Assembly: GCA_009784445.1 (NCBI GenBank)
Contig: WRBQ01000002.1
Location: 35,860 to 99,859 of the forward strand
Source: Oscillospiraceae bacterium
GTDB lineage: Bacteria; Bacillota; Clostridia; Oscillospirales; Acutalibacteraceae
DNA length: 64,000 nt
Direction: 5' to 3'
Position numbers and translations under genes: made by a program. Below, in pieces: positions 265-48,951 of this stretch. Position 1 is the stretch's first letter, and the number at the start of each line of letters is the position of its first letter. Under the pieces are notes generated by a model that saw only the letters and a list, made by a program, of their open reading frames with translations, searched no databases and had not been told where the DNA came from.

Positions 265-296
265 GTTGGTAACTAACTTTGGAGGAGTGTTTTGCG

Positions 297-6200: not shown

Positions 6201-7973
6201 CACAGGCTGCTTGGCTGGAACACCGAGTATGACGGCAGCGGCACCGAAGTTAATGCCACCACCATCGTCAACGTGGATATCATCAACCCGTTTGCTATGG
6301 CGGACAACATGGCTAACAGCGATATCCCCACCCGCATTTATGCACAGTGGGCACTCGTTGAGTTTAACTTGAGATTTGACCTGCAAGGCGGTAACATTGG
6401 CGGCAATGAAAATAACATTGACACGACCGTGGAATGGGGCCAACGCTATGAGCAAGCCCTGCTGTGGCCGGGCGAAGACCCAGCCGTGATTGTGCGCGAT
6501 GATTATGTGTTCGTGGGCTGGTACACCACGCCGCTCACTGGCGGCAGCCGCATTGTTGGCTCGATGTACGTGCCGACCACGCTGCCCTTGCCGCCCGGCG
6601 TAACTACGCTGTATGCCCGCTGGTTCCCGGCAGACCACTATGCCTACTACGTGCATGTGTATCTGGAGGAAGCTGATGGCACGTTCACGCGCTACACCAG
6701 CCAGCGGTACTATGCGCACATTGACAGCACGGTAACACGCGATGGCGATTACTGGGGCGATGCATTCTTCGTGTTTGACGCAGGCAACCCAGACAATGTG
6801 CTGTCTGCCCCCATGACGAATGACGGCTCAACGGAACTGATTCTGCACTATCGCCGCATGACGGTGAGACTGTATGTGGATCTCAATGGCGAAGGTGCCG
6901 AGATTGCACCGAACCCGGCAGGCGAATATCGCTGGGGCCAACAGCTGACGGTGGTTGAACCCACACGTCCGGGCTGGAGATTTGATGGCTGGCGCGTGAT
7001 TGGTGCTGGCTCTGAAATGACTGATGATGAACTCATCTTGGGTCGTGTGGATACGACCATCATCGCGCAATGGCAAACCGCGCCAATTGCCGTGGTGCGC
7101 CAAGTGGATAACCATGCATTCTACGATACCTTGGTTGTGGAACTTGGCATGCCGCTGAACACGCATGGTGTTCCAACTGATCCCGTTTTGGCTGGCTGGC
7201 ATTTCCTTGGCTGGTCGCAAGATTTGGGCGAAACATTCCTCACCGAATATTGTAGGATTATGCGCCTTGACCCGATTGACGCAATTTTTGCGCGCGTGTA
7301 CACGGTGACCTACGATGCGACCTATGGTGAAATTATAACCGAAGGCGGCCAGACTACCGTGCGTCAAGTCTGGTATGGCGGCAGATTTGGCCAAGGTTTG
7401 GGCGGCGGTGAATCGGTGCCCGGTGCCGAGCGTGCGGAATATGTGTTCGCTGGCTGGTTCTTGAATCACAATGATGAAGAGATTCAGGTGTTCACCAACA
7501 CCGTGGTTCCGCGCTTGAACGCTCTGCCCACGCATAACCCCAGCGGCAGCGTGCTTGCGCTGAGCGATGTAATCATCGACACCGATGCGGTGATTGAAGC
7601 GCGCTGGGATTGGCTGCGCTGCCCCAATCACCCTGAACCTCCCAATGAGTTCCCGTGGTGGATTCTACTGCTGATTGGTATTCCTGCAGCGCTTGTGGTC
7701 GTCATTGGGCTTATCCTAGCACCAGTGCTAATGATTTTGGCAGCGTTGCTGCCCGGTCGCCTGCTGTGCTGGCATTGGGAAAACTGTGACCCTGCCACAC
7801 AAACGGTACAGGTGCAGCAACCGCTGCAAGGCGTAGTAGACCAACTGGTGGAAGTGACGCAAACCAATAGTGTGGTTTGGGGCCTTTCGCTGCTGGTGTT
7901 GCTGATTGCTGGTGGCGCGCTAACTTGGCTGCTGCTGCAACGCCGCAAACAAAGTAAAGTCGTTGGTGAATAA
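297..7973 (+). CDS. Giant secreted/membrane-anchored surface protein with about 17 Listeria-Bacteroides (Flg_new type) repeats and Cys/Asp/Glu-rich inserts
   Basis: ATG 297 follows GGAGGA (281-286). The N-terminus has a signal-like segment, LSVLLSLALVFTMLMIGLTSAAG. A roughly 640-aa N-terminal region is not recognised. About 17 repeats then carry G[YF]xFxGW ... LYAxW signatures. Two C-terminal hydrophobic segments and an RRKQSK tail follow, and no LPXTG motif is seen. Confidence 0.9.
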   Translation: MKKKGTYFRRSLSVLLSLALVFTMLMIGLTSAAGAPHSFDYLPGEPPAATPGLTFLAPEVIYLTPSRATGQVAWQFFADQYLDGTPRANVAERTVGTLFFNYAGASSVVIELINNPAGVAVNHNAIPSGTTTVNHDLTGTSTQPPAPGGGYLLTWRATYTVAGVAHTAYTFSYVYRPVYTPTAWGVHVRRGGDPNRGRGATHMFWVNGLHRNFDGPQSLFEPTNDATNGIRGGNDTVRNRSSLYTLLQGQTGLWNGANAVTPLPGSAWNNASFGATNDDRRGHETYIRAGAGTAMFTQITGANNQFNPQNVATTNVAWISNNLTISSQLDGPDTNTGCPMRMVYWQSSNHADGHLWVDTSRHAHYGQIPNLSTWLGRTRTERPFWGGGGSVCPHYYFISWTNRDEMYVSAAGGDQAVRMGYGHRRDTATSLFSYRGLAFETTVTHANRSSVLINNDAWFQHNAATNRDQGLNGIVRGGAWNNIPTTETPNIVFSVHQESFYTSGNSQWRFRTQYRAQMNINQITHDNTALRTAFNDAIALGLQRNMFRPIDWDNYFTALTNVAMALMRVDYAPADVNGLIESLNSAVTLLLDEIFDFTLSTLIVATAQHRNIRTNANIFTENLTPLRLVDDFIIGHQQANALGTNNYFLNNPSSLYNALPIITDADGGVYSWIYVEQFDPTLDDPSFEPTGTTFHATHDNLRQVQLTDPHPMVSGNVTLTWRFFYSPRIRVQFLANGGVFEGGATTNNIFYALSDDVSDPLPIYNAPATNQGTYRRPTRAGYAFTGWRLVGLGCDCDDCECTDCDCENDVPVGGLINTAGALQQDTNHRLIAVWEEAFTLRYVLNSGVLASGVSRPEQVIIIDGDCDIPLTPEWPAEITRPNSELLYWALYRYNTETSEFERVGEFDPGESVADMLHDIGEHHDVFELRAVWESTPHGVRFMHNDDTTNFTDERRDYGEELGPFPTLTRAGYQLIGWASAPTGGTDVFADCVVEDGLVGFDYTIEYPDIAATFYALWAPSYFTVTFHANGNAADPVTGTTDSPQDFVFGTPQYLNENGFARVGFTFDGWALTPTGVVEFTDEQEVEDLTDVHEGNVDLYAVWTPIQYIVSYNARPGENVSGSMANTTHVYNVAQNLRANTLTRPGHTFIGWTTEPCVNCNCDPDCECAVACDCAVACDCIDCDDCVDCSEDCLNCSAAACCETDCCAIACDCTTDCDCDVEFTDAQSVVRLTSVANAEIRLYALWAPLPFTINFINGETQISTETEYYGDEVTVPDYTALTPPTGYEFGGWWTTPAPVEDVDCVRVLPNVGPWTVNSNLPLSEASLLDNEVPTNIYVRWVGRQLPVHWHLDGGHYYDDPTNTANIETYQTFNSTFELPNQPVHPDPNITFVRWVRDVDRSQVITGDSDVNATTLDALTIETGTVPTLMRAVWRFAGEHHIEYHLEGGNVNGNASSPVLFSMEVDDQFRTADAITCEEDEADCECPRQNMPQDPVKTGHTFLGWFSQPQFCDEDDEDCDCPICEDEAVRIQAGDTLTEELVANVMDGNVPTPFFAHWAPVNYNLVFDLNGGNIAGSTTNPTIDDIPFGTEIELPTEPTREGFTFGGWWFEVADPAADEEIYDGRELCNLILSVESLALPATPTIYVALWIPIDYQVVFDLQGGSMCGDFDDCDCDDPTDTVQFDDYFVLPAPEPTRFGYTFVGWFTQPGGDGDEIDEDTVAGEDNLNLTNGDYVDVCECVPCGEEEPDCLCEPCEPEWQLDPTRFYAHWVAQTATLTFNPQGGTQNRNSQAITFGEALGAAHMVDDEPTLATATRTGFDFIGWHDLPQDHADAADAVEWEADCDVDFEGNKTLHAWWQAQEFRLYFTCDYATPSEDYIDTVFDEAFGYMATIERPGYVFDGWFVDGEEIDEDSIHDVAADITAVARWTPREFVFDFIGNGGLPSTYGVSQTYDTTVNFPANANLPTKEGHRLLGWNTEYDGSGTEVNATTIVNVDIINPFAMADNMANSDIPTRIYAQWALVEFNLRFDLQGGNIGGNENNIDTTVEWGQRYEQALLWPGEDPAVIVRDDYVFVGWYTTPLTGGSRIVGSMYVPTTLPLPPGVTTLYARWFPADHYAYYVHVYLEEADGTFTRYTSQRYYAHIDSTVTRDGDYWGDAFFVFDAGNPDNVLSAPMTNDGSTELILHYRRMTVRLYVDLNGEGAEIAPNPAGEYRWGQQLTVVEPTRPGWRFDGWRVIGAGSEMTDDELILGRVDTTIIAQWQTAPIAVVRQVDNHAFYDTLVVELGMPLNTHGVPTDPVLAGWHFLGWSQDLGETFLTEYCRIMRLDPIDAIFARVYTVTYDATYGEIITEGGQTTVRQVWYGGRFGQGLGGGESVPGAERAEYVFAGWFLNHNDEEIQVFTNTVVPRLNALPTHNPSGSVLALSDVIIDTDAVIEARWDWLRCPNHPEPPNEFPWWILLLIGIPAALVVVIGLILAPVLMILAALLPGRLLCWHWENCDPATQTVQVQQPLQGVVDQLVEVTQTNSVVWGLSLLVLLIAGGALTWLLLQRRKQSKVVGE

Positions 7974-35424: not shown

Positions 35425-36016
35425 ATCACGCATGTTTGGTGAGTTGGAAGTCGTGCATGCCATCCATATCGGCGATAAAGAAGTGTTGTTTTTGCTGGAT
35501 AAGCAAAACACAGAACGGCCGTATATCGTTAGCTATAATCAATTGATGTTCGGCCTAGATTATCCCACGGAAACTGTGGGCAGCGCGGACTATTTGGAGA
35601 TGATGGAGGAGTTTCTTCAACGAGTACAGGGTCAGATTGACCAAGTGCGAGAAGACCGCGCACGCTCATGTGAGCCGCAGGAAGTATTCACACAAGCGCA
35701 ATGCCTGCCGCCAAGCAAGCACGAAGAGCGATTTATTGACCGTGTTGTGGTGATTAACGCCGAGCGTTTGCGTCCCGAATATGGCAATATAGCGAATCAA
35801 GTGGTATATATCACTGGTGGTTTTGGTGCTGAACCAAGCTCACGCGGCGGCAAAGTTTACGGACATAACGTGTTTTCCGGCGAGCAAGTCGTGTGGCGCA
35901 GAGAGCATGTACTAGGCATCCTCGCCCCTGCCCATGCGCCCGATTGGGTGAAACCCGGCGTGGATGCGATACGAGCGCAGCAGAAATCCAAAGGAGGAAA
36001 AGAGCATGGCAGATAA
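35414..36016 (+). CDS. Hypothetical ICE protein
   Basis: ATG 35414 overlaps the upstream stop. The product is protein-like with host-like codon bias, and no family was recognised. Confidence 0.6.
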   Translation: MEHESRMFGELEVVHAIHIGDKEVLFLLDKQNTERPYIVSYNQLMFGLDYPTETVGSADYLEMMEEFLQRVQGQIDQVREDRARSCEPQEVFTQAQCLPPSKHEERFIDRVVVINAERLRPEYGNIANQVVYITGGFGAEPSSRGGKVYGHNVFSGEQVVWRREHVLGILAPAHAPDWVKPGVDAIRAQQKSKGGKEHGR

Positions 36017-36494
36017 CCAAATCCGCTTCATTGATCTGGATTACAACACTTTGTTTTCCATCCCGGATGGTGGCAATATTGTCATCACACGTCCGGGCGG
36101 TGAACAGCAGGTGCGAACCTGTCAGTTTATTGATGAAACACACATGCGTGTGGGCAATTACGATTATTATATCTGCGAATTTGCCGAGCGAATGCAGCAA
36201 TTGGGTGCAACATATGCGCCCGAAATTGAGCCGGAAATCATCGCAGGCTACCATATCATTGACCGCTGTCCCGCAGGCGATGTCGTGATTAAACTCGGCC
36301 ATAACCCCCGCGCTGTGCAGCCATGGGTCACATGGCAGGGTTATCCCAATAAGCCCGGCGATGTGGACTTAGGGCACTATTATACCAACCGCCGCGACGC
36401 TGAAACCGACTTGCGGCTGCGCACACAAGCAAAGCTAACCGGCAAACCCTACGAGCCATATGCGCCAAAACCACAGAAACGAGGTGCAAGATGA
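36006..36494 (+). CDS. Hypothetical ICE protein
   Basis: AAAGGAGG lies before ATG 36006. No family was recognised. Confidence 0.6.
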   Translation: MADNQIRFIDLDYNTLFSIPDGGNIVITRPGGEQQVRTCQFIDETHMRVGNYDYYICEFAERMQQLGATYAPEIEPEIIAGYHIIDRCPAGDVVIKLGHNPRAVQPWVTWQGYPNKPGDVDLGHYYTNRRDAETDLRLRTQAKLTGKPYEPYAPKPQKRGAR

Positions 36495-36973
36495 ACCTTT
36501 GGAATCCCCACCATCCCATCGCGGAGCTTGGCGTAAACGACATGCTCAGACACCACCTGCGCATCGACGGTATCCTCACCATTGGTCAGCTTGACGATTG
36601 TGTGAAAGATAAGTTGTCCGTGCTGGGCTATGACAAAAAGCAAGTATCGCAAGCGCGCACTGCATTGAACAAACATAAGGACTTTGTGCAAACCATTGAA
36701 GCTGCTTTTGCGGGTCAAGGACTGACCGCCAAGCAAGCCAAACAGATGTGGCCATTCGATTTGCTCACCCTGCCGCTAACCACTGCGCAGTTGGGATATA
36801 TCCTGCGCTGGCAGCGGGACGTGGCCAAACGCTACGGCGAAAAAGAGATGTTCTGCATCACCGATGGGCAGATATTCTACTGCACCAATTGCCCGTACCG
36901 CGATGAACGCAGCAACTTTTGTGGCTGGTGCATGCGCAAGTTATTGCAGGATAGGAAAGCAAAGGAGGCATAA
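36491..36973 (+). CDS. Hypothetical ICE protein with a C-terminal Cys cluster
   Basis: ATGA overlap with the upstream stop. The C-terminal CTNCPYRDERSNFCGWC suggests a zinc ribbon. Confidence 0.6.
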   Translation: MNLWNPHHPIAELGVNDMLRHHLRIDGILTIGQLDDCVKDKLSVLGYDKKQVSQARTALNKHKDFVQTIEAAFAGQGLTAKQAKQMWPFDLLTLPLTTAQLGYILRWQRDVAKRYGEKEMFCITDGQIFYCTNCPYRDERSNFCGWCMRKLLQDRKAKEA

Positions 36974-36976
36974 TCT

Positions 36977-39900
36977 ATGGCCGCCAAACTGCAAACCATC
37001 ACTGAGCTTTACAATGAAACCATCGCCAGCATCACGCAATCCCCCGAACAGTGGCAGAGCTTCCTCCAAGCCGCCGCCCGCAACTACAAACTGCCCTTTG
37101 ACGAGCAGCTGTTGGTGTTCGCCCAACGCCCCGATGCCACCGCCGTGTTGGAGCTTCAACATTGGAACAACAAATTTGCACGCTGGGTCAAGCGCGGCAG
37201 CACGGGCATTGCCGTGTTCGACAACACATCAACTTACCCTCGCGTGCGCTATTACTTCGACATTGCAGATACCAACGAAAGCGAACACTCACGCCCTGTG
37301 CCATTGTGGCAAGCGCCTGCGGGCTATGTGCCCAACTTAGATATTGCCGTACTCGTGGAAGATAATCTCTTGGATTACACCGAAGAACTGGCCGCGCTCG
37401 CCCCCGACTTTGACCCTGCTGTGTTTCACCAAGTTGTGCTGGAAAGCGTGAATTTCATGGTACACACACGTTGCGGGATTGAACTACTCGCCCCGGATTT
37501 TGATGCACTGGCACAGTTTGACACGCCCATGTTGGTCAACGCACTGGGCACGGCGGTGAGCGATATTGCCGAAATGGGCTTGCGTGAGGTCATTCGCACA
37601 ATTGCAAATGACGAGCAGATGCGGTATACTGGTGAAAAAAGCGAAAAGGAGCACGATTATGAACCTAACCACGACACAAGTGAATGGCTACCACATCCCG
37701 AACGTGACGATGCCCGAACAACCGAGCACGCCCCTCAACCGCTGGGGCAGAGCGAGATTGAACCACCTGCGGCAGAACATGAAAATCCTGCACCGCCACC
37801 TGATGACCCAAGGCCAGCTGTGGCCGCACCTGCTAGAGATGCAGCAGACAGCGCAGGCTCGGCTGGATTTGCTGACCACGCAGATGGCGAAATCACAGGG
37901 CGTGACGGAGGAACTCAAGGCGAGCAATCAGCTGGCGTGGCTGGGGCAGATGAACAACATCAACGCCCAAGCCGAGGAGCTGGTCATGCGGGAGCTGGTG
38001 TTCAGCTAAGTCTGTTCCCCACGCAGGAGCAGCAAATTGCATATATTGAAGACGGCTTGTCCTTTGGGGGCGAGCCTTTTTCATTGGATGAGCCGGAGCA
38101 TGCTGCGATGTTCGAGCAGATTTTACGCGGTAGCGGACGCAACAGCGGCAGTTCGTTGCGCATTGCCGCCCACTTCGCGCGGGAACGCATGCCGGAGGAG
38201 GATGCCGCATTTGTACAGCAAGAGTTTGGCGAACGGTTTCGGGGCTTCCAATTCGGGCAGCAAAAAGTTGCCGTGGGGCACGCGCCGGACGGCATGGATA
38301 TTGCCTTTGGCGATAGCGTGCACTCACCGCAGGCAACATTGATTCCATGGAAAACCGTGGTTGACACACTGCGGGATATGCTCAATCGCGGCGAATACCA
38401 CCCGCAGGAAACCCTTGATCGTGCCGCAGATTTCGTCACGCGCGAAACAGCAGCAACGCTCAGCTATATGCAGCGCGAAATTGTCGAGGGACACACATTG
38501 CTTGAGGATGACAGTGTATTTTCGGGCGTTTACCCCGACAAAACCGACCGTCTTGCAGAGTTGCTCAAAGACTCTACCGCCCATGCCGAAATGGTTGCGG
38601 CTCTTGAAACATTCGCCGCTGACTATGCGCAAAACAGAGATTTACTGCGCTGGCATACTTATAAGCCTGCCGATGTGCGGCGCAAAGTGAAAGATGTGCA
38701 AGCACCCCGCAGACAGTTTGAAGTCGCGCCGGACTTTGATTATCTCCCGCCGCAGCTGGTCATTTCGCAGGACGAAATTGATGTTGAGTTGCGGCAAAAG
38801 CACTTGGGCAGCAAGCTGGACATCATTGAGTGTTTTGCGCAGGAAGATGCTGCGAAAGAGCGTGCCGCTTTTGTGAAGCAGCAATACGGTATCACGGGCG
38901 GCTCGTATGGTGATGGCTTCAGTAAAAATTATAGCGCTAAGGGATTGAGTCTCTCGCGCGGCGATTCACGAGAGCCGGATGCGCATGTGTTGGTCACGTG
39001 GCCGCAGGTGGCACAACGCATCGCCCAGCTGATTGCCAGCGACCGTTATCTCACCGCCAAAGACCACGCAGAACTGCCTGCGTATTATGCTGAGCAGGAA
39101 CGCCTTGAAATTCAGCGTAAACAGCATGAATTTATGGAATCCGTGGCGGACTTGCACCCTGCGGAAAAGCGGGATAGTTTGGCGCAACGGCTGACGAATT
39201 ATGTTGGTAGCTTGGAGTCGCATGAGGAAAAACACCTTATAGGTATTGCCGAGGACATCACCACTGAGCAAATGGAAGCCATGCTGCAATCGCCACCGCA
39301 AACACAGAAATTGATAGATGTTGTGACCAAGATTGCACGCAACACGGGTGGTGTGTTTGCTCGCAATCACGGTTATCGCTTTGGCGAGGAGTTGCAGGTG
39401 CTGCACTCGCGTGAGTATGCCTATGATGCCGGGCAAACGGTGACGATGGACGGCACGCAACGGGAAATTGCTTTTGTGGATGACAGCGTTGTGCGGCTGA
39501 ACAACCCGGATTTTCCGCTTGTGATGGAAGAAATACCGCGCGATGTGTTCGAGCAAAAGCTTGCCACAGATGAGCACAATGACCATTTGTTGCGGTTTGT
39601 GCAGGAGGATGTGCCCACATTGCCCACTGTACCCTATGTTGTCATTGAGTTCAGCGAAAGCCCACACTTTGCCGAGGGCGAGCGTCTTTCTTTCACCGAA
39701 GCTGACCTAAAGTTCAAACAGGTGGAGCGGCAGGAACGCCAAGAACGCGCGGGCGGTGGTGGCTATAACAAGACATTCGGCAAGATATATTTCTTGGATA
39801 ATCCAAACGACACTGAGCTTTCGACCTACGAGTTTCGCTATGACATCGGGGATTACAATGCGCAACGTTCTGGCTTGTTTAACCATGTGCAGAATCTTTG

Positions 39901-42900
39901 GAGCAATGTAGATAAGCAGTTGCAGTTAGGCGAATATGTAGGCTACACTGTTGATGATGTTGCCAATATACAGCGCATGCTTGCTATGCTGGAGCCATTG
40001 CAAGACAGGTTATATCGCCCGGCAGAGCTTCAACCAAAGAGCGAACTCGCTGTTGTAGACAACGAAGAACCGATTGCAGTGGGTCGTTTGGATTTTCTGG
40101 ATTCCAATGGCGAAGTTGTGGAATCAATTGAATACAACGACGAGAAAACTTTCATCGCAAAAATACGCGATGAAGACGACTACGGCGGAGCATTTTCCAT
40201 CGTGGTCTACCGCAGCCCAACAGATGGCAAGCCTCTTGTGGGTGTCAATCAGTTTGTTGAAGATATTCGGCCAATGAGAAGTTTACGATACGAGGATGTC
40301 CCAATCCGCGAAAAACCTGCCAACTTCCGCATCACGGACAACGAGTTGGGTTACGGTGGCGCAAAGGCAAAGTTCCGCATGAACACCGAGGCCATCAATT
40401 TGCTGAAAGCGGTGGAATTTGATGGGCAAGATATTACACCAGCGGAACAGGAAATCCTGTCGCGCTATGTCGGCTGGGGCGGCATTCCGCAGGCCTTTGA
40501 CCCGGATAATGCCGCATGGGAAACAGAATATCTCGAACTCAATGCGTTGTTATCCCCCGAAGAACATGCTGCCGCGCGTGCTTCCACATTGAATGCCCAT
40601 TACACCAGCCCAACGGTGATAAAAGCCATCTACAAGGCCGTGGAGAATATGGGCTTCACCAGCGGGAACATACTCGAACCGTCCTGCGGGGTTGGCAATT
40701 TTTTTGGCCTGCTGCCCGAAAGCATGGCGACAAGTAGGCTCTATGGCGTGGAACTCGACCCCATCACGGGCAGAATTGCGCAGCAGCTTTATCCTAACGC
40801 GGACATCAAGATTGCTGGCTTTGAGCAAACCGACCACCCCGATAGCTTCTTCGACCTCGCCATTGGCAATGTACCGTTTGGAGATTACAGCGTGGTTGAC
40901 CGCCGCTACGATAAGCACAAGTTCCTCATCCACGATTACTTCATAGCCAAGACACTGGATAAAGTACGTCCCGGCGGTGTGGTGGCGTTTGTGACGAGCA
41001 AAGGCACCCTAGATAAGCAAAATCCTGCGGTGCGCAAATATCTAGCCCAACGTGCGGAATTGTTGGGGGCGATTCGATTGCCCAGCAATGCCTTTTTGAA
41101 GAACGCAGGTACAGAAGTCACCAGTGATATCATCTTCCTGCAAAAGCGCGACAGACCCCTTGAACTTGAACCCGACTGGATTCACTTGGGGCAGACCGAA
41201 GATGGCATCCCCGTGAACTCGTACTTCGTGGACAACCCGCACATGGTGCTGGGCACGATGTCCATGGAAAGCACACAATATGGCAAAGACGACACGACTT
41301 GTCAGCCATTTCCCGACCGCGATTTGGCAGAGCTGCTGGATGAAGCCGTAGGGCACATCCGCGCGCAAGTGCAGGATTATGAGCGCGAAGACGATGACCC
41401 GCTGGAAAGCGAAAGCATTCCCGCCGACCCGGATGTGCGCAACTTTAGCTTTGCTATCCACGAGGGGCAGATAGTCTACCGCGAAAACTCCATCATGATG
41501 CCGCAGGAGATGAGTGCCACCGCGCAAAGCCGTGTGCGGGGGATGATTGGCATCCGGGACAGCGCCCGCAGGTTGATTGACCTGCAAACCGAGGATGCAC
41601 CCGACAGTGAAATCCAGCGTGAACAAGTGCGGCTAGGGCTGTTGTATGATGCTTTCACCGCCAAGTATGGCCTGCTCAACGACCGCGCCAACGCCACCGT
41701 GTTTCGCGATGATGGCAGTTACCCGCTACTATGTTCCCTTGAAGTCCTAGACAATGAGGGCAAGCTCAAACGTAAGGCAGATATGTTCAGCAAGCGGACG
41801 ATTAAACCGCACGCGCCTGTCACACATGTGGACACAGCCGCCGAAGCTCTTGCGGTGTCGATTGGCGAAAAGGCACGGGTTGACCTAGACTTCATGGCCG
41901 AGCTTTCGGGGCTGAATGAAGATGCACTCATTGCAGATTTGCAGGGGGTTATCTTTCAAGAGCCTGTGTCAAGGCAATGGCAGACAGCAGATGAATACCT
42001 ATCTGGCAATGTGCGCGAGAAGTTGCGGGTTGCACGGGAGCATGACATGCCGACCAACATAGCTGCTTTAGAACTCGCCCAACCTGTGGACTTAACCGCC
42101 GCTGAGATTTCGGTGCGACTGGGTGCAACCTGGCTGCCGCCCGATGTGGCGCAGGACTTTATGCATGAACTGCTGAAACCACCAAGCTGGCAGCGCAGCA
42201 AAATTCAGGTGCATTATTCTAAGCACACCGCTGAATGGAGCATCACCGGCAAGACTGTAGACCGCTATAGCATTGCCGCAAGCACAACTTATGGCACAAA
42301 ATGCATCAGTGCCTATCACATCATTGAGCAGACATTGAATTTGCGTGCGGTGCGGGTGTTTGATACGGTCTATAAGGACGGTAAGGAAGAACGCGTGCTA
42401 AACCCCAAGGAAACAGCCATTGCACAGGGCAAACAAGAGCAAATCAAGCAAAAGTTTGCAGATTGGATTTGGGCTGACCCCGAACGCCGTGCACGGCTTT
42501 GTGCGCTGTACAACGAACAGTTCAACTCTATTCGTCCGCGTGAGTATGATGGCAGCCATATTCAGTTCGTGGGGATGAACCCCGAAATTACGCTGGATAA
42601 ACATCAAGTGGATGCCGTTGCCCGCAAACTTTACGGCGGCAACACGTTGTTTGCCCATGAGGTGGGGGCGGGGAAAACCTACACCATGATAGCCTCAGCG
42701 ATGGAAAGCAAACGCCTTGGCTTGTGCAATAAATCCCTGTTTGTTGTGCCCAATAACATCGTGGGGCAGTTTGCCAGCGAGTTTTTGCAGCTTTACCCCA
42801 GTGCTAATGTACTGATGGTCACGGCTCGTGATTTTGAGAAAAGCAATCGCAAGAAGTTCTGCGCGCGCATTGCTACCGGGGATTACGACGGCATCGTCAT

Positions 42901-43759
42901 GGCGCACAGTCAGTTTGAGAAACTGCCGATGTCACGTGAGTGGCAGGAAGATTTTCTGCAAAGCCAAGTCAACGACATCAGCAGTGGAATTGCCGATGCG
43001 AAAGAACAGCAGGGCGAGCGTTTGACGGTCAAGGCAATGGAGCGTGTCAAAAAATTCTTGCAGACCAGAATCCAAAAGCTGAATGAACAATTCCGCAAGG
43101 ATGATATGCTCAACTTTGAGCAACTCGGTGTGGATGCGCTGTATGTGGATGAGGCTGACCTGTTCAAGAACCTCATGTTAGTCACCAAAATGCGCAATGT
43201 GGCAGGTATTGGTCAGAGTGATGCAAAGAAAGCCAGTGACTTGTTCATGAAAACACGTTGGCTGGATGATGTCACTGGGCGGCGCGGCGTGTGTCTTGCT
43301 ACGGGCACGCCTATCAGTAATACCATGGCCGAAATGTACACCATGCAACGCTATCTACAATACGACACCCTAGTTGCGCATGGATTGGAGCACTTTGACT
43401 GTTGGGCATCGACTTTTGGCGAAACCGTCACGGCGATGGAGTTAGCCCCCGAGGGCACGGGCTTTCGCATGAAAACGCGATTTGCGAAGTTTTACAACCT
43501 GCCCGAACTCATGGCGATGTTCCGTGAGGTTGCGGACATCCAAACGGCAGATATGCTTAACCTGCCCACACCCAAGGTGCACCAGCGCATTATTGCCGCA
43601 AAGCCCAGCCCGCAACAAAAAGAAATGGTGTTGGCACTGGCCGAGCGTGCAGAGAAAATCCGCAGGCGCGAGGTCAAGCCCACAGAAGATAACATGCTGT
43701 TGGTGACGAATGACGGCAGAAAACTTGCGCTTGACCAGCCCGTTGTTGCCGGATTTTGA
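36977..43759 (+). CDS. Giant polyvalent ICE protein: ArdC-N-like ssDNA-binding module, N6-adenine DNA methyltransferase, N-terminal half of an SNF2/DEAD-type helicase (frame-interrupted at about 43740)
   Basis: AAGGAGG lies before the ATG. The N-terminal module reads LLVFAQRPDATAV...W..F.RWVKRGSTGIAVF. Methyltransferase motifs are EPSCGVGNFFG (motif I) and IGNVPFG (motif IV-like). Helicase motifs are AHEVGAGKTY (Walker A) and VDEADLFKN. Confidence 0.85.
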   Translation: MAAKLQTITELYNETIASITQSPEQWQSFLQAAARNYKLPFDEQLLVFAQRPDATAVLELQHWNNKFARWVKRGSTGIAVFDNTSTYPRVRYYFDIADTNESEHSRPVPLWQAPAGYVPNLDIAVLVEDNLLDYTEELAALAPDFDPAVFHQVVLESVNFMVHTRCGIELLAPDFDALAQFDTPMLVNALGTAVSDIAEMGLREVIRTIANDEQMRYTGEKSEKEHDYEPNHDTSEWLPHPERDDARTTEHAPQPLGQSEIEPPAAEHENPAPPPDDPRPAVAAPARDAADSAGSAGFADHADGEITGRDGGTQGEQSAGVAGADEQHQRPSRGAGHAGAGVQLSLFPTQEQQIAYIEDGLSFGGEPFSLDEPEHAAMFEQILRGSGRNSGSSLRIAAHFARERMPEEDAAFVQQEFGERFRGFQFGQQKVAVGHAPDGMDIAFGDSVHSPQATLIPWKTVVDTLRDMLNRGEYHPQETLDRAADFVTRETAATLSYMQREIVEGHTLLEDDSVFSGVYPDKTDRLAELLKDSTAHAEMVAALETFAADYAQNRDLLRWHTYKPADVRRKVKDVQAPRRQFEVAPDFDYLPPQLVISQDEIDVELRQKHLGSKLDIIECFAQEDAAKERAAFVKQQYGITGGSYGDGFSKNYSAKGLSLSRGDSREPDAHVLVTWPQVAQRIAQLIASDRYLTAKDHAELPAYYAEQERLEIQRKQHEFMESVADLHPAEKRDSLAQRLTNYVGSLESHEEKHLIGIAEDITTEQMEAMLQSPPQTQKLIDVVTKIARNTGGVFARNHGYRFGEELQVLHSREYAYDAGQTVTMDGTQREIAFVDDSVVRLNNPDFPLVMEEIPRDVFEQKLATDEHNDHLLRFVQEDVPTLPTVPYVVIEFSESPHFAEGERLSFTEADLKFKQVERQERQERAGGGGYNKTFGKIYFLDNPNDTELSTYEFRYDIGDYNAQRSGLFNHVQNLWSNVDKQLQLGEYVGYTVDDVANIQRMLAMLEPLQDRLYRPAELQPKSELAVVDNEEPIAVGRLDFLDSNGEVVESIEYNDEKTFIAKIRDEDDYGGAFSIVVYRSPTDGKPLVGVNQFVEDIRPMRSLRYEDVPIREKPANFRITDNELGYGGAKAKFRMNTEAINLLKAVEFDGQDITPAEQEILSRYVGWGGIPQAFDPDNAAWETEYLELNALLSPEEHAAARASTLNAHYTSPTVIKAIYKAVENMGFTSGNILEPSCGVGNFFGLLPESMATSRLYGVELDPITGRIAQQLYPNADIKIAGFEQTDHPDSFFDLAIGNVPFGDYSVVDRRYDKHKFLIHDYFIAKTLDKVRPGGVVAFVTSKGTLDKQNPAVRKYLAQRAELLGAIRLPSNAFLKNAGTEVTSDIIFLQKRDRPLELEPDWIHLGQTEDGIPVNSYFVDNPHMVLGTMSMESTQYGKDDTTCQPFPDRDLAELLDEAVGHIRAQVQDYEREDDDPLESESIPADPDVRNFSFAIHEGQIVYRENSIMMPQEMSATAQSRVRGMIGIRDSARRLIDLQTEDAPDSEIQREQVRLGLLYDAFTAKYGLLNDRANATVFRDDGSYPLLCSLEVLDNEGKLKRKADMFSKRTIKPHAPVTHVDTAAEALAVSIGEKARVDLDFMAELSGLNEDALIADLQGVIFQEPVSRQWQTADEYLSGNVREKLRVAREHDMPTNIAALELAQPVDLTAAEISVRLGATWLPPDVAQDFMHELLKPPSWQRSKIQVHYSKHTAEWSITGKTVDRYSIAASTTYGTKCISAYHIIEQTLNLRAVRVFDTVYKDGKEERVLNPKETAIAQGKQEQIKQKFADWIWADPERRARLCALYNEQFNSIRPREYDGSHIQFVGMNPEITLDKHQVDAVARKLYGGNTLFAHEVGAGKTYTMIASAMESKRLGLCNKSLFVVPNNIVGQFASEFLQLYPSANVLMVTARDFEKSNRKKFCARIATGDYDGIVMAHSQFEKLPMSREWQEDFLQSQVNDISSGIADAKEQQGERLTVKAMERVKKFLQTRIQKLNEQFRKDDMLNFEQLGVDALYVDEADLFKNLMLVTKMRNVAGIGQSDAKKASDLFMKTRWLDDVTGRRGVCLATGTPISNTMAEMYTMQRYLQYDTLVAHGLEHFDCWASTFGETVTAMELAPEGTGFRMKTRFAKFYNLPELMAMFREVADIQTADMLNLPTPKVHQRIIAAKPSPQQKEMVLALAERAEKIRRREVKPTEDNMLLVTNDGRKLALDQPVVAGF
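37659..38009 (+). CDS. TnpV-like small protein encoded in the +1 frame inside the giant ORF (nested gene candidate)
   Basis: AAGGAG (37646-37651) lies 7 nt before ATG 37659. The 116-aa product has ...PLNRWGRARLNHLRQN...QMAKSQGVTEELKASNQLAWLGQMNNINAQAEELVMRELVF, matching my recollection of the TnpV family pattern. About five in six codons end in G/C in this frame. Confidence 0.6.
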   Translation: MNLTTTQVNGYHIPNVTMPEQPSTPLNRWGRARLNHLRQNMKILHRHLMTQGQLWPHLLEMQQTAQARLDLLTTQMAKSQGVTEELKASNQLAWLGQMNNINAQAEELVMRELVFS

Positions 43760-45062
43760 GGGTAGTAAGGTGAATCTTTGTGTGGATAATCTGCACCGCA
43801 TTTGGCAGGCAACCGCTGATAAGCGTTCAACCCAGCTTGCATTTGTGGATTTATCTACGCCGAAAAACGATGAAAACTTTGATGTGTACCACGACATCAA
43901 AGAAAAGTTGCTGCTGCGGGGCATACCAGCAGACGAAATTGCGTTTGTGCATTCGGCAAAAAATGAAGCCCAAAAGCAGGCGTTGTTCGGCAAAGTGCGC
44001 AACGGCGATGTGCGGGTTTTGCTGGGCAGCACCGCTAAGATGGGCGCAGGCACCAACGTGCAGGATCTCATCATCGCTTCGCATGACCTTGACTGCCCGT
44101 GGCGGCCGCGTGATTTGCAACAACGCCTTGGACGCATGGAACGGCGTGGCAATCAAAACCCGGAAGTGGAGAATTTTCGTTACGTCACCGAGCAGACCTT
44201 TGACAGCTACTTATACCAAATGAACGAAAACAAGCAGAAGTTCATTTCGCAGATATTCACTTCAAAATGCCCCGCGCGTGTGATGCAGGACGTGGACGAA
44301 ACGGTGCTCGGCTTTGCTGAGGTCAAAGCCCTTGCCACAGGCGACTTGCGCATCATGGAGCTGTGCAGCCTTGAAGCCGAGGTGAACAAGTTAAAGCTGC
44401 TGAAGTCCAGCTTCATGAGTGAGCGTTATGCTTTGCAGGACAGTGCCGGCAAGCATTTGCCCGAAAGGATTCACCGGCTGGAACAAAAAATACAGGGGCT
44501 TGAAAGTGACATAAAGCTTGCAACACAATCCTCTCCCGCCACTGCTGAGCAGTTTGCGGGTATGGTCGTTGAGGGCAGGAACTTCGATACGCCCAAAGAT
44601 GCAGGTTTTGCTATACTGGAAGCCTGCAAGGCCTTTCAAGGCAGAGAGCCAAAGCCCATTGGCAGTTACCGAGGGTTTCAACTGGAAGTCGTTTGGGATT
44701 ATTACAACGGTATCCATGCGATACGCTTGTGCGGACAGGAGCAACACAAGGTGGAGATGGGCACTGATGCACGCGGCAACGTCACCCGAATTGATAACGC
44801 CATCGCTGACTTGCCGCAGGAATTGCAGAACAGCCAAAATGCCCTACAAGAAACTCGGCAGCAATTGGTTACGGCACTAGCCGAAAAGGACAAGCCGTTC
44901 CCGCAAGAAGCCGAACTGACTGAGAAGTCCGCGCGGCTGGCGGAGCTTGCCGTGGCCTTGCAGCTGGATAAACGCGTGCCCGAAGTCTTAGATAGCGATG
45001 TGCCCGATGAGGGGGATAGCGTTGCTGTGCCTGCGAGGAAAAAAGATGGGCGGGAACGCTAG
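43710..45062 (+). CDS. C-terminal half of the SNF2-type helicase (continuation of the giant protein after a +1 frame break)
   Basis: PLLPDFEGSKVN... continues the sense of ...TNDGRKLALDQ from the upstream frame. Helicase C motifs are LLGSTAKMGAGTNVQ and QQRLGRMERRGN. The ATG at 43710 is probably not a real start. Confidence 0.8.
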   Translation: MTAENLRLTSPLLPDFEGSKVNLCVDNLHRIWQATADKRSTQLAFVDLSTPKNDENFDVYHDIKEKLLLRGIPADEIAFVHSAKNEAQKQALFGKVRNGDVRVLLGSTAKMGAGTNVQDLIIASHDLDCPWRPRDLQQRLGRMERRGNQNPEVENFRYVTEQTFDSYLYQMNENKQKFISQIFTSKCPARVMQDVDETVLGFAEVKALATGDLRIMELCSLEAEVNKLKLLKSSFMSERYALQDSAGKHLPERIHRLEQKIQGLESDIKLATQSSPATAEQFAGMVVEGRNFDTPKDAGFAILEACKAFQGREPKPIGSYRGFQLEVVWDYYNGIHAIRLCGQEQHKVEMGTDARGNVTRIDNAIADLPQELQNSQNALQETRQQLVTALAEKDKPFPQEAELTEKSARLAELAVALQLDKRVPEVLDSDVPDEGDSVAVPARKKDGRER

Positions 45063-45088: not shown

Positions 45089-45107
45089 ATTGGAAAGAGG
45101 TGGAATT

Positions 45108-46247
45108 ATGCAAACATACGAATTACGCATTTTCGACACAACCTTGCTGCGCTTTAGCCTAGAAAGTGCTGACATCGAAGGGTTGCGCGCCAGCATTCTT
45201 TCGGTCAAGCAGAATGAAAAACACCTGCTCCCCTTGGACTTAGAATTGAGTGCCGAGGGTGTTGCGGCATGGCTACGGCGGCGGGTCATCCCCAAAAACC
45301 GCGCGTTCGTGGATGAAATCCTGCGCTCACTTGGCCTTTCGCAAGGTGACACACAGGGCATTATCGACATCTGCAAAGGCTTGTCGCTCAATGATTGCTA
45401 CTGGGTTGTGCCCGAGGGATTTGACGGCAAGTTTGCTGACTTCAACCTCTACGAGAACCGCTTTTCGGAAATCTTAGCACTGGTTGCTTACACCGGGGCT
45501 GGGCAAAGCCAAGAGGCATTCACCACCTCGCCCGAACTCACGACCAATGGCATGCTGCCCAAGGCTTGGCGTTTCGTTGAAACCGACGGCATCACGCTGT
45601 ACAAGGGCGGCACAACAGGCGCGGCCAACACGGGCAATGAGCCGTTTGCAGAGTTTTACGCCTGTCAGATTGCACAGGCCATGGGGCTTGACGTGGTGCA
45701 ATATGACCTCGAAAACTGGAAAGGCATGCTTGCGTCAACTTGTAAGCTGTTCACGAACCTCGACACCGCTTATGTACCCATTGGCCGCGTAGTGCGCAGC
45801 GGCGGTTTGAAAGCCGTGCTTGCCTATCACGAAAAACTCAGCCCACAAGCCTTTGAAGCCGTGAAAAGCATGCTCGTATTTGATGCCGTCATTTGCAATG
45901 AGGACAGGCATTTCGGCAACTTTGGGCTGCTGCGAAATAACCGTACTGGCGAAATCTTGGGCACTGCGCCGCTGTTCGACCATGGCTTTTCGCTGTTCAA
46001 CCTCGCCATGCCGAGCGATTTCAACGACCTTGCGGCTTACGCCAAAACCCGTGCGCCTGTCTATGAAGGCACAGCCTTTGAGGGCATTTGCCGTGCGGTG
46101 ATGGGCAAGCAGCAAGCTGCGCAGTTGCGGCAACTGATTGGCTTTACGTTCAAACGACATCCCAGCATCAACTGGCCCGAAGAACGCTTGCAGGCCATTG
46201 AGCAATGGCTGCAAGGGCGCGTGCGGGAGTTGTTGAATTTACGCTAA
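45108..46247 (+). CDS. HipA-like serine/threonine kinase domain protein
   Basis: GAGGTGG lies before ATG 45108. The C-terminal kinase core has VICNEDRHFGNFGLL (catalytic loop) and APLFDHGFSL (metal-binding Asp). The N-terminal ...IPKNRAFVDEIL...LSLNDCYWV matches HipA-N-like regions. Confidence 0.8.
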   Translation: MQTYELRIFDTTLLRFSLESADIEGLRASILSVKQNEKHLLPLDLELSAEGVAAWLRRRVIPKNRAFVDEILRSLGLSQGDTQGIIDICKGLSLNDCYWVVPEGFDGKFADFNLYENRFSEILALVAYTGAGQSQEAFTTSPELTTNGMLPKAWRFVETDGITLYKGGTTGAANTGNEPFAEFYACQIAQAMGLDVVQYDLENWKGMLASTCKLFTNLDTAYVPIGRVVRSGGLKAVLAYHEKLSPQAFEAVKSMLVFDAVICNEDRHFGNFGLLRNNRTGEILGTAPLFDHGFSLFNLAMPSDFNDLAAYAKTRAPVYEGTAFEGICRAVMGKQQAAQLRQLIGFTFKRHPSINWPEERLQAIEQWLQGRVRELLNLR

Positions 46248-47173: not shown

Positions 47174-47722
47174 GTGTCGAATGTCGAAATATCTTATACC
47201 TGTGGTTTTTGTGAGATTGCATTCACGTCCACAAATCCGAACAGACGATTTTGCAGCACCTCGTGTGCTGGAAAGAGCACCGCAAAAGATATTACTGGGA
47301 ATGTCTATGGTAAACTAACGGCGATTAAACGGCTGGATGAGCGTAATGCGAGCCACAGACTATGGCTGTGCCGATGCGAATGCGGCAATCTCACCAAAGT
47401 TCCGATCAACTTTCTAACAACAGGACATACAAAAAGCTGCGGTTGTTTTAAGGGAAAGGGGCAGAGAAAAAATCATTTATACCTTTTTGAGGGCACAAAT
47501 ATTAGTAGAATCAATAAAGATACACTGTTCAAATGTAACACAAGCGGTGTTCGCGGTGTGCATCAGCACGAAAGCGGAAAATGGATGGCGCGAATTGGTT
47601 TTCAAAATAAGAGGATTTACTTAGGGATTTTCAAGACTTTTGAAGAAGCTGTTGCAGCCCGGCGCGAAGCTGAAGAAAAATATTTCAAACCCATCATCGA
47701 GAAATATAATAAGAAGGATTAA
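47174..47722 (+). CDS. AP2-domain DNA-binding protein with an N-terminal Cys-rich region
   Basis: GTG 47174 lies 8 nt after AAGGGGGG, and the alternative TTG is at 47150. SGVRGVHQHESGKWMARIGFQNKRIYLGIFKTFEEAVAARREAE is an AP2/ERF-type fold signature, with WLCRCECG...SCGC upstream. The gene is visibly more AT-rich than its neighbours. Confidence 0.7.
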   Translation: MSNVEISYTCGFCEIAFTSTNPNRRFCSTSCAGKSTAKDITGNVYGKLTAIKRLDERNASHRLWLCRCECGNLTKVPINFLTTGHTKSCGCFKGKGQRKNHLYLFEGTNISRINKDTLFKCNTSGVRGVHQHESGKWMARIGFQNKRIYLGIFKTFEEAVAARREAEEKYFKPIIEKYNKKD

Positions 47723-48951
47723 AAGTACCCCACTGGATGAATGGTGTGGTCGGCTTTGGCGTTAAGCCTGCCCAGTTGCCGATCGATCCCCATCAGCCCC
47801 GGCGCAATGGCGTGATGACCAAAGCGCCGCCGCAGGCCGTCCACGGTGCGCTCAATGCTTTCTTGCCGCAAGCGAGATTGCTCGTCATCAAACAGCGACA
47901 ACTGTACCTGCTCAATGGCAGGTACAAGTTGTGCCGCACGTAGACCGATGCTGCGTAACGGCTTTTGCCAGTCGTAATGTGCACGCAACAACTGCATCGT
48001 CGCAGCACTTAGCTCACTTGCCAAGCAAGTGGGCTTTTGTAATGTTAGCTGCCGCTCAAAGCTATGTAGCTCACTATCTCGCAAGGAAATTTGCACGACC
48101 TTGCCGCATAACCCCAGTTCACGCAACCGCTCAGCCACGCTTTCCGCCAAGCCAGTAAACACGATGTGGCAGTCCTGTTCGTTGAGCAAATCCCGTGGCG
48201 TTGTCCAGCTGTTGCCCACGGATTTAATGGCACGCTCATGGCTTGAGGGTGTGACGGGCGAATCGTCAAGGCCATTCGCAAACGCGTGCAGATACAAACC
48301 CCATTTGTGCAAATGGCTTTGCAAAATTTCGGGTGGTGTGGTGGCGATGTCGCCGATGGTGCGCAGCCCCAGGTTGTGCAATTTTCGTGTTGTAGCGCGA
48401 CCCACACCCAGCAAATCTTCCGCAGGTAGCGGCCACACCGTTTGCTTGACGTTTTCCCGCGTGATGATGAATTGGCCATCGGGTTTGCGTTGGTCACTAC
48501 CAAGCTTCGCGAAGATTTTGTTCCAACTCACACCCACGCTCACCGTGATGCCAAGTTCGTGTCGCACCTGCCTGCGGGTGCGCTGCGCGAAATATTCGCC
48601 ATCGCCCAAAAGGGATAAATCTGCCCAGCATTCATCAAGCCCGAAGCTTTCAATCAAGTCGGTATACTCCCCAATAATCTCGCGCAGCAGACGACTGAAC
48701 CGCAGATATTGCTCGAAGTTCGGTGGCATGAAAATGATGTCGGGGCAGCACTGCCGTGCCTGCCACAATGCCATGCCAGTTTTCACACCGCAGCGTTTGG
48801 CTTCGGGCGACTTCGCCAGCACAATGCCGTGGCGAGCCTCCACGTCGCCGCCCACGGCCATAGGTTTGCCGCGTAGCGCGGGGTTATGTAAAAGCTCTAC
48901 ACTTGCATAAAAAGCGTCCCCGTCGATGTGCAAAATCGTTCGTTTGTTCAT
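47719..48951 (-). CDS. dinB: Y-family DNA polymerase (DinB/ImpB type)
   Basis: ILHIDGDAFYASVE ... PMAVGG ... LGLDECWADL are canonical Y-family motifs. Confidence 0.9.
   Translation of the reverse strand: MNKRTILHIDGDAFYASVELLHNPALRGKPMAVGGDVEARHGIVLAKSPEAKRCGVKTGMALWQARQCCPDIIFMPPNFEQYLRFSRLLREIIGEYTDLIESFGLDECWADLSLLGDGEYFAQRTRRQVRHELGITVSVGVSWNKIFAKLGSDQRKPDGQFIITRENVKQTVWPLPAEDLLGVGRATTRKLHNLGLRTIGDIATTPPEILQSHLHKWGLYLHAFANGLDDSPVTPSSHERAIKSVGNSWTTPRDLLNEQDCHIVFTGLAESVAERLRELGLCGKVVQISLRDSELHSFERQLTLQKPTCLASELSAATMQLLRAHYDWQKPLRSIGLRAAQLVPAIEQVQLSLFDDEQSRLRQESIERTVDGLRRRFGHHAIAPGLMGIDRQLGRLNAKADHTIHPVGYF

Follow-up and report, generated by a model that had tools for sequence, protein, structure and literature searches.

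We analysed a 64,000-nt stretch of the genome of an Oscillospiraceae bacterium (contig WRBQ01000002.1, positions 35,860 to 99,859 of the forward strand; hereafter the window) that carries a giant open reading frame (ORF), with a second complete gene, tnpV, lying inside it in the +1 frame. The two very probably form a genuine same-strand nested gene pair, in which a segment of the giant protein, an acidic linker, is overprinted on an older tnpV. The original prediction for this locus had left a choice between a true overlap of this kind and a giant ORF that is not one protein. Comparative evidence favors the overlap: the giant frame is open across tnpV in 91 of 92 nested loci, the same frame of stand-alone tnpV genes contains about 5.6 stops, and the TnpV frame evolves with a ratio of nonsynonymous to synonymous substitution rates (dN/dS) of about 0.18. 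To judge from the sequences of related loci, the arrangement is conserved and not an accident of this window. Coordinates of all features are collected in Table 1.

The nested gene and its host frame

The product of the nested ORF had been placed in the TnpV family in the original prediction, and a profile search agreed, with Pfam family PF14198 matching at 121.9 bits (cut-off 27; E 1.6e-35) over a near-complete model, positions 3-111 of 111. The window TnpV is 62-68% identical to many other 116-aa TnpV proteins (part of it reads ASNQLAWLGQMNNINAQAEELVMR). It conforms to the conserved features of the family, namely the motifs LTYT, P14, GVTEELK, W94 and MNNIR and a size of about 110-130 aa, and the columns P14, K87, W94 and E107 are invariant in alignments A2 and A3. 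An attempt to read a function from structure was given up: the AlphaFold2 (AF2) model is confident (mean predicted local distance difference test score, pLDDT, 89.8) and consists of a beta-hairpin plus helices, yet it found no fold match at E <=0.001 in PDB or BFVD, and the sequence profile returned only noise against PDB. The sole functional statement that we found for TnpV is an excision function, postulated from its resemblance to lambda Xis (PMC3158075).

The particulars of this gene had been given exactly in the original prediction, including the coordinates and sequence of the 116-aa ORF and the AAGGAG located 7 nt before its ATG. Its codon counts were also exact: 97 of the 116 codons end in G or C (a G+C content at third codon positions, GC3, of 0.836), and only four end in T. 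The codon-usage signal does sit in the nested frame, as proposed. The G+C-rich phase falls on position 3 of the giant codons in both flanks (0.63 and 0.58) and moves to giant position 1 (0.83) within 37646-38008. Over the same interval, the giant frame translates into a low-complexity linker, as had been described, that is acidic and rich in G, A, P, E and D (for example, DGGTQGEQSAGVAGADEQHQRPSR) and for which no Pfam family was matched.

The giant ORF starts at an ATG preceded by GGAGG at a distance of 8 nt. Besides the three domains listed in Table 1, Pfam matched ResIII in it (E 3.4e-5). It thus joins several conflict-related domains, including an LPD domain, in one polypeptide, which is the hallmark of the polyvalent proteins described from conjugative elements and phages (Iyer et al. 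2017, PMC5512222). Its N-terminal part (the N module), which we regard as folded and which has 35% hydrophobic plus aromatic residues, is not ended by a stop, a point on which the original prediction was borne out. The 'ArdC' label that had been attached to the N module passed none of the sequence tests. Its sequence had no Pfam match at E <=1, ArdC-N (PF08401) included, and no relevant NCBIfam match at E <=0.1, the sole match there being a sub-threshold RelB/DinJ model (E 0.06). A profile of the N-module alignment (A1) found nothing at E <=1 among PDB sequences. The AF2 model of the module is poor (pLDDT 66, with residues 56-110 below 50), and although its top Foldseek match was indeed an ArdC structure (6sna_A), this match from a poor model was non-significant (E 0.76, TM 0.30). 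Membership of the N module in the ArdC family is therefore not confirmed.

A scan of one genome per species, anchored on the N module (alignment A1), yielded at least 573 relatives, and 80 loci were fetched, in which tnpV was detected with a hidden Markov model built from TnpV hits. The gene was present, in full or truncated by a contig end, in 79 of these 80 loci; a further locus (L021) held only a remnant, and L015 gave no match. Related giant proteins do carry a similar linker and the same nested ORF, a recurrence that the original prediction had suggested checking. Wherever it was found in these loci, tnpV kept a +1 offset from the N module in spite of indels and lay about 830-850 nt after the N-module ATG, with its own ATG, its own stop and usually GAAAGGAG ahead. 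The giant frame was open from the N-module ATG through tnpV and, in the majority of loci, for over 1,500 aa past it. Hosts were mainly Lachnospiraceae, Oscillospiraceae, Ruminococcaceae and other Clostridia, with many cultured isolates and one complete chromosome among them; Owariibacterium komagatae 13GAM1G (L075), Dorea amylophila (L031) and Diplocloster agilis (L019) are examples of such isolates.

Giant-ORF homologs found with the first 488 aa as query share the low-complexity motifs '...ERS...GRDGGTE...DEQ...DLQL', which are shadows of tnpV features: 'ERS' (GAA AGG AGC; GAAAGGAGC in relatives) is the tnpV Shine-Dalgarno (SD) sequence read in the giant frame, 'GRDGGTE' overlies 'GVTEELK', and 'DLQL' overlies 'ELIYS-stop'. 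When IMG/VR was scanned with TnpV as the anchor, tnpV genes of both kinds, nested and free-standing, were recovered. The full-length sets comprise 92 nested genes, which form 30 clusters at 80% nucleotide identity and 13 at 70%, and 39 stand-alone genes.

Selection on the two frames

Giant-frame stops across tnpV were absent from 91 of the 92 nested genes (mean 0.01). The same frame of the stand-alone genes was free of stops in only 2 of 39 and had at least one in the other 37 (mean 5.6), and the third frame was full of stops in every individually listed gene, nested and stand-alone alike. We compared these counts with a simulation in which the synonymous codons of each nested TnpV were resampled from the codon usage of its own giant ORF. 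Over the 92 nested loci, 6.5 giant-frame stops were expected on average, and the mean probability of an open frame, P(open), was 0.006. For the window copy, 3.6 stops were expected (P(open) = 0.014), and for an AT-rich locus with a flank GC3 of 0.17 (L123), 16.7 were expected and none observed. When each cluster was represented by its most favourable member, a conservative choice, log10 P(open) summed to -69.8 over 30 clusters and to -28.2 over 13. The avoidance is visible at individual codons. T at the third position (T3) before AA, AG or GA, where it would create a giant-frame stop, occurred once in 3,268 cases in nested genes, as opposed to 16.4% in stand-alone genes and 22.3% in an N-module baseline. 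Because T3 was also depleted at harmless contexts (14.6%, versus 24.6% and 27.4%, respectively), more than stop avoidance appears to be at work.

These data bear on an account in which the N module, tnpV and the methylase-helicase part are three separate cistrons and the open giant frame is a by-product of the G/C-rich third positions of tnpV, which we consider improbable. It gains some credit from the window gene itself, whose four T-ending codons make few stops possible, from the stand-alone relatives of the window TnpV clade, which also have 0-1 stops, and from the Prokaryotic Genome Annotation Pipeline (PGAP), which annotates such loci as tnpV plus a large protein starting downstream. Against it, 91 of 92 loci are open where 6.5 stops would be expected, AT-rich hosts with a flank GC3 of 0.17-0.28 included, and the depletion of T3 is specific to tnpV relative to its own flanks. 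Moreover, the +1 offset between the N module and tnpV is invariant even though indels occur, and the N module has no stop of its own. A conserved restart of the giant frame after tnpV was absent, with an ATG plus SD-like motif found in only 8 of 92 loci and at varying positions, which argues that the downstream domains are not a separately started cistron. On these last three grounds, we also set aside the second alternative of the original prediction, that the giant ORF is not one protein.

The linker differs from the corresponding (shadow) frame of stand-alone tnpV genes in having fewer hydrophobic plus aromatic residues (12% versus 23%), more D+E (20.6% versus 9.3%), no Cys (0 versus 3.1%) and a mean net charge of -12.6 rather than +5.9. 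Substitution rates, estimated by the Nei-Gojobori method in 27 non-overlapping (independent) pairs of loci, showed purifying selection in the TnpV frame (dN 0.033, dS 0.181). Both flanks of the giant ORF had a dS above that of tnpV (0.267 and 0.400; Wilcoxon p 2e-6 and 4e-8), and the slowed synonymous change in tnpV is as expected if a second frame adds constraint. Read in the linker frame, the same DNA gave a dN of 0.067, a dS of 0.043 and a dN/dS above 1. Together with the dN/dS of about 0.18 in the TnpV frame, this result suggests that the amino-acid constraint sits in TnpV and that the amino-acid sequence of the linker itself is free to change. The comparison of substitution patterns in both frames, which the original prediction had named as a check, thus came out as purifying selection on TnpV and a linker-frame ratio above 1. 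Selection is visible in both frames of the nested pair, as purifying selection and low dS in TnpV and as stop avoidance and shaping of composition in the giant frame. TnpV is widespread as a free gene, whereas the linker belongs to no family and is free to vary, which makes it probably the younger, overprinted frame.

The same rates make it very improbable that only the giant protein is real and that the nested TnpV ORF, captured at the time of module fusion, survives as a relic without being translated. Gene callers that favor long ORFs do mask tnpV, and many predicted giant proteins run straight through it. However, a TnpV-frame dN/dS of about 0.18 over 27 independent pairs and a linker-frame ratio above 1 place the constraint in the frame that would be the relic. 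Its SD sequence, ATG and stop are conserved, and full-length Pfam matches to TnpV persist in at least 90 loci, down to about 35-40% identity.

Some free-standing tnpV genes resemble nested ones in the frame under discussion. The closest relatives of the window TnpV are free-standing genes with 62-67% amino-acid identity (L163-L169; for example, L165:4001-4351), in which T3 is 0.04-0.12, versus 0.14-0.21 in neighbouring genes. Their low T3 and few stops look like the fading footprint of a former embedding, or else like a cassette predisposed to read-through. A rough neighbour-joining tree placed the nested genes in one large clade with a few free-standing lineages inside it, and these lineages had 0-1 stops near nested relatives and 3-7 when more distant. 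Such a gain of stops in proportion to divergence fits the decay of an open frame after embedding was lost. One of the two stop-free stand-alone genes (L109:2808-4100, on an IMG/VR contig of 34% G+C, near lysis-type genes) has no N module. It directly follows a divergent lysin-like gene (judged by eye to be peptidoglycan hydrolase/LysM-like) and a small hydrophobic ORF. Its giant-equivalent frame contains 0 stops, versus 22 in the third frame; the open stretch begins 190 nt before tnpV and extends into a large protein downstream, where the usual '..NLQL' junction is seen.

Expression signals and a proposed mechanism

The start of tnpV is marked in nearly all nested loci, with GGAG present at most 20 nt upstream of the ATG in 88 of 92 and at a spacing of 8 nt in 82. 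These signals leave a still smaller chance than that of a relic for programmed +1 ribosomal frameshifting, which would yield an N-module::TnpV fusion and make the nested ATG incidental. In one database protein, P0096, TnpV residues 20-116 follow the N module in a single frame. It comes from a 4.2-kb contig of a metagenome-assembled genome (L001:700-1881) that matches L006 at 97% identity but for 4 gap positions, which points to an indel, and the contig still shows a normal SD sequence and an 'MTELTYT...' start (MTELTYTMQGDY) in the +1 frame; we therefore rejected it as a true architecture. P0096, explained by its 4-nt gap, was the only fusion product found, and no dedicated search for slippery sites was made. 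Elsewhere, the ATG is conserved with its GGAG, and the TnpV frame is closed by a stop at a median of 21 codons upstream of the ATG, a variable distance of 0-94 codons. As for a sequencing or assembly artefact that fused or shifted the frames in the window, it has next to no chance of being right. The same giant gene does contain a frameshift near 43740, yet the frame relationship is identical in dozens of independent assemblies, isolates and a complete chromosome included.

A promoter-like site precedes tnpV in the window, inside the giant ORF, with a -10 element that ends 28 nt before the tnpV ATG. Among nested loci, promoter-like sites scoring at least 9/12 reached 6.98/kb in the 95 nt upstream of tnpV, versus 0.45-0.78/kb elsewhere in the ORF, and most -10 ends fell 28-37 nt before the ATG. 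Sites scoring at least 8/12 occupied that position in 80 of 92 loci and 22 of 30 clusters, compared with 5.8% at random positions. Stand-alone genes have the same kind of site. Three of the four same-clade genes (L165, L166 and L168) show TTGACG-17-TAAAAT or TACAAT ending 32-34 nt before the ATG.

Downstream of tnpV, the window contains a terminator-like hairpin 45 nt after the stop, again inside the giant ORF, with a predicted folding energy (dG) of -21.4 kcal/mol and a z of -5.5 relative to shuffles. As expected of an intrinsic terminator, the putative element is a G+C-rich hairpin directly before a U-tract, and its position is conserved. Within 150 nt downstream of the tnpV stop, nested loci carry 3.62 hairpin-plus-T-run sites per kb, versus 0.59-0.75/kb in the flanking ORF (about 5-fold), and a terminator-like hairpin was found in 49 of 92 loci and 17 of 30 clusters. 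A search of the hairpin region against Rfam returned nothing relevant. We aligned 32 distinct hairpins with MAFFT (alignment A4). Eight of the ten base pairs of the 10-bp stem change on both sides, and the covariation score of 0.543 exceeded that of shuffles (0.261 +/- 0.022; 0 of 500 reached 0.543) and fell to at most 0.21 when the partners were slid. The compensatory changes are synonymous in the giant frame; for example, GCA GAG ... TCT GCT alternates with GCG GAG ... TCC GCT, both encoding 'EAE...SAFS'. A hairpin also follows the stop, at a distance of 58-71 nt, in all four same-clade free-standing tnpV genes, which are flanked by parB and a nikA-like gene. A promoter-like site and a hairpin shared with stand-alone genes suggest that the nested gene is the same promoter-SD-ORF-hairpin cassette, read through by the larger ORF. 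Whether promoter and terminator are both active we put at roughly even chances.

The loci without a hairpin have features of their own. A large nested clade (L004, L006, L014, L023, L024, L031, L039, L040 and L054) lacks a terminator-like hairpin in the 150 nt after the tnpV stop and shares the peptide 'YYDR..EDKSLPFFG.DDTIREIL' downstream of tnpV. The promoter-like site is kept in 42 of the 43 nested loci without a hairpin. At L073:5198-5275, the giant frame is interrupted 29 nt past the tnpV stop, and a very strong hairpin (-24.6 kcal/mol) is found there that differs from those seen elsewhere; an insertion or the boundary of another element could explain it.

We infer that both products of the nested pair are actually made and propose the following mechanism. 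Ribosomes starting at ATG 36977 would translate the N module, then read through the entire tnpV cassette in frame 0 and go on into LPD25, the methylase and the helicase part, with the 121 frame-0 codons over tnpV giving rise to an acidic, low-complexity and presumably disordered linker. TnpV would be made separately, by initiation at its own SD sequence and ATG in frame +1, and probably largely from a short transcript running from its own promoter to its own terminator, if these are active as their sequences suggest. Selection on TnpV would act on its amino-acid sequence. Selection on the linker would act only on openness (no stops) and composition, that is, few hydrophobic residues, no Cys and a net negative charge. 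Giant-gene transcription might pass the hairpin through leaky termination, through melting of the stem by giant-frame ribosomes or with the help of an antiterminator encoded by the element. The original prediction had spoken of an 'unusual expression logic'. That expectation stands in its simplest form, internal initiation, to which must be added the promoter-like and terminator-like pair of tnpV, which it had missed.

A bolder version of this mechanism, to which we give a modest chance at best, holds that the nested cassette is a switch and not a passenger, and that the linker may be functional. The tnpV terminator would then stop transcription by default, so that only TnpV is made, and the 2,700-aa methylase-helicase protein would appear only when giant-frame ribosomes or an antiterminator of the element melt the hairpin during the induction of transfer. 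The linker, with a net charge of about -12, could act as a DNA-mimicking or autoinhibitory tail for the adjacent, possibly DNA-binding N module. If this is the case, a new functional protein segment would have been born from reading an old gene in another frame.

Several points weigh against the nested pair and its proposed expression. The case for an overlap is a comparative one, built on sequence signatures in both frames. The loci compared are phylogenetically related, so that locus counts overstate the number of independent events, and clustering mitigates this only partly. The three-cistron account, ruled out by these comparisons for the family, remains the main caveat for the window copy. 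The closest relatives of the window TnpV stand alone, and their giant-equivalent frame likewise contains only 0-1 stops; because same-clade (high-GC3) stand-alone TnpV genes are nearly stop-free, the stop-free statistic for the window is weaker than the family-wide one. With regard to the hairpin, about half of the nested loci lack a strong one, and the stem of alignment A4 is paired in 88.8% of cells, a percentage that is biased because the sequences were chosen for having a hairpin (the enrichment test is not affected). An active terminator inside an essential ORF would also need an extra read-through mechanism. Finally, the giant gene of the window is frameshifted near 43737-43759 (about 43740), so this copy may be decaying or mis-sequenced. 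The giant frame ends there with '...NDGRKLALDQ' / '...NDGRKLALDQPVVAGF' and a stop, and the next frame reads '...PLLPDFEGSKVN...' on into Helicase_C. The split is either a frameshift mutation or a sequencing error.

Known systems, annotation and element context

The arrangement at tnpV, with one ORF inside the other, on the same strand, in another frame and with its own start signals, has a precedent in comS of Bacillus subtilis, a small ORF with its own ribosome-binding site inside the giant multidomain gene srfAB, on the same strand and in a shifted frame, where both products are needed. However, comS encodes a lineage-restricted peptide of 46 codons and is a novel frame over an old nonribosomal peptide synthetase domain. 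Here, the nested gene belongs to an old, widespread Pfam family and the linker of the host ORF would be the novel frame; in addition, tnpV appears to keep its own promoter and terminator, and the pair is conserved across many Clostridia families. The phage pairs Rz/Rz1 (lambda) and A/B and D/E (phiX174) are likewise same-strand, fully embedded and out of frame, with one compositionally biased or disordered member and depressed synonymous rates. These overlaps are viral and under genome-size pressure, and in them the embedded gene is younger, whereas the tnpV pair resides in a large conjugative element and its embedding ORF would supply the younger frame.

With LPD25, an N6 methylase and a SNF2 helicase in one polypeptide, within a conjugation module, the giant protein resembles the polyvalent proteins of PMC5512222. 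That paper does not contain the words TnpV, overlapping, frameshift or linker, and the theme it describes does not extend to genes nested in inter-domain linkers. The nested TnpV is of the same Pfam family and the same size as TnpV of Tn4451/Tn4453 and of C. difficile Tn6104-6106 (PMC3158075), and it shares the promoter-SD-ORF-hairpin layout with stand-alone copies; classical tnpV, however, is free-standing beside a large serine recombinase or mobilisation genes and is not embedded in another ORF. Our search of the literature on TnpV, polyvalent proteins and overprinting in conjugative elements found no description of tnpV nesting. Long overlapping genes, with two long coding frames per locus, have been proposed in E. 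coli and Pseudomonas (PMC8850804, PMC7103648). These cases are mostly antisense and taxonomically narrow orphans with Ribo-seq support. The tnpV pair, in contrast, is same-strand, belongs to a curated family and has deep comparative support, all of it read from DNA sequence.

The tnpV pair, with its 351 nt of fully nested, same-strand overlap, would be a rare, well-supported long overlap. To our knowledge, very few long overlapping genes in bacteria have good support, and such cases are often disputed. The two-frame signature recurs in dozens of divergent lineages, cultured gut isolates included, and is therefore directly testable. The usual polarity would be reversed, with an ancient embedded gene and a large host ORF that gained its linker by out-of-frame read-through, which offers a concrete route for the fusion of modules into polyvalent proteins and for the de novo birth of a disordered segment. 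Moreover, a hairpin kept in the giant ORF by compensatory synonymous changes raises the question of how expression of establishment proteins is gated.

Automatic annotation represents such loci incompletely. PGAP records keep tnpV, leave the N module unannotated and let the large protein begin too late, by 75 nt in one case and by about 1.9 kb in another. Since gene callers that favor long ORFs hide tnpV and PGAP drops the N module, the domain architectures and gene counts of these elements are wrong in public databases. In two loci (L173, NZ_OY725736.1 430693-431025, and L002, WQTL01000514.1), PGAP lists a 'TnpV protein' and a later-starting large SNF2-related protein, and in L002 an antisense ORF is called over the N module; neither locus interrupts the giant frame. 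Pseudogenes are left out of the PLSDB gene table, so that such a call may have been made here.

The window itself changes character along its length. Bases 1 to about 28,000 look chromosomal, with tryptophan biosynthesis genes, queA, a PBP5-type carboxypeptidase and a sugar transporter with a glycosidase. From about 29.8 kb, we found ParA/ParB, a SpaA-type surface protein, the giant gene, a HipA_C-like ORF, a Y-family polymerase, a Toprim protein, a relaxase, a type IV secretion system (T4SS) coupling protein (T4CP), a TraG/VirB4-like ATPase and an M23 peptidase. The relaxase, coupling protein, ATPase, peptidase and ParA/ParB all lie within 20 kb. Given this set of conjugation genes, the region from about 29.8 kb is probably an integrated conjugative element. 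No serine recombinase was found among the window ORFs scanned with Pfam; stand-alone tnpV relatives lie between parB and a nikA-like gene or adjoin serine recombinases. A search for close DNA relatives of the window among plasmids gave a single weak match (70% identity over 8% of the query).

Table 1. Features of the tnpV locus and the giant gene in the window, all on the + strand
Feature	Position (nt)	Description
Giant ORF	36977-43759	2,260 aa; polyvalent-type protein with N module, linker, LPD25, N6 DNA methylase and SNF2-type helicase
N-terminal module of the giant protein	36977-37645	aa 1-223; family label ArdC-like not confirmed
Promoter-like site of tnpV	37602-37630	-35 TTGCAA (37602-37607), 17-nt spacer, -10 TATACT (37625-37630)
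tnpV Shine-Dalgarno sequence	37646-37651	AAGGAG, 7 nt before the ATG; read in the giant frame as part of 'EKE'
Putative overprinted linker of the giant protein	37646-38008	aa 224-344; acidic, G/A/P/E/D-rich; encoded by the other frame of tnpV
tnpV	37659-38009	116 aa, wholly inside the giant ORF, +1 frame; ATG at 37659, stop at 38007-38009
Terminator-like hairpin	38047-38083	core stem 38054-38076, U-tract 38077-38081 (UUUUU); encodes 'EDGLSFGGEPFS'
LPD25	39626-39892	Pfam, E 1.8e-13 on the whole ORF, E 1.5e-14 on a 600-aa segment
N6_Mtase	about 40565-41152	Pfam, E 6.6e-8
SNF2-rel_dom	about 42638-42841	Pfam, E 4.1e-8
Continuation of the giant protein	43710-45062	other frame; Helicase_C (E 5.4e-7) and C-terminal region

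Two small ORFs (176 and 160 aa, at 35964-36973) lead closely into the giant gene, with a 4-nt overlap between them and only 3 nt from the stop of the second to ATG 36977; neither matched a Pfam or NCBIfam family. Directly after the giant gene, the HipA_C-like ORF (45090-46247) scored 27.9 bits, below the Pfam cut-off of 30.5. The Y-family DNA polymerase (47719-48951; IMS, E 1.7e-41) is encoded on the opposite (-) strand, inside the conjugative element. At the other end of the window, in its chromosomal part, an ORF of 2,564 aa (279-7973) with Listeria-Bacteroides repeat domains (Flg_new, E 1.1e-63) probably encodes a large surface protein.

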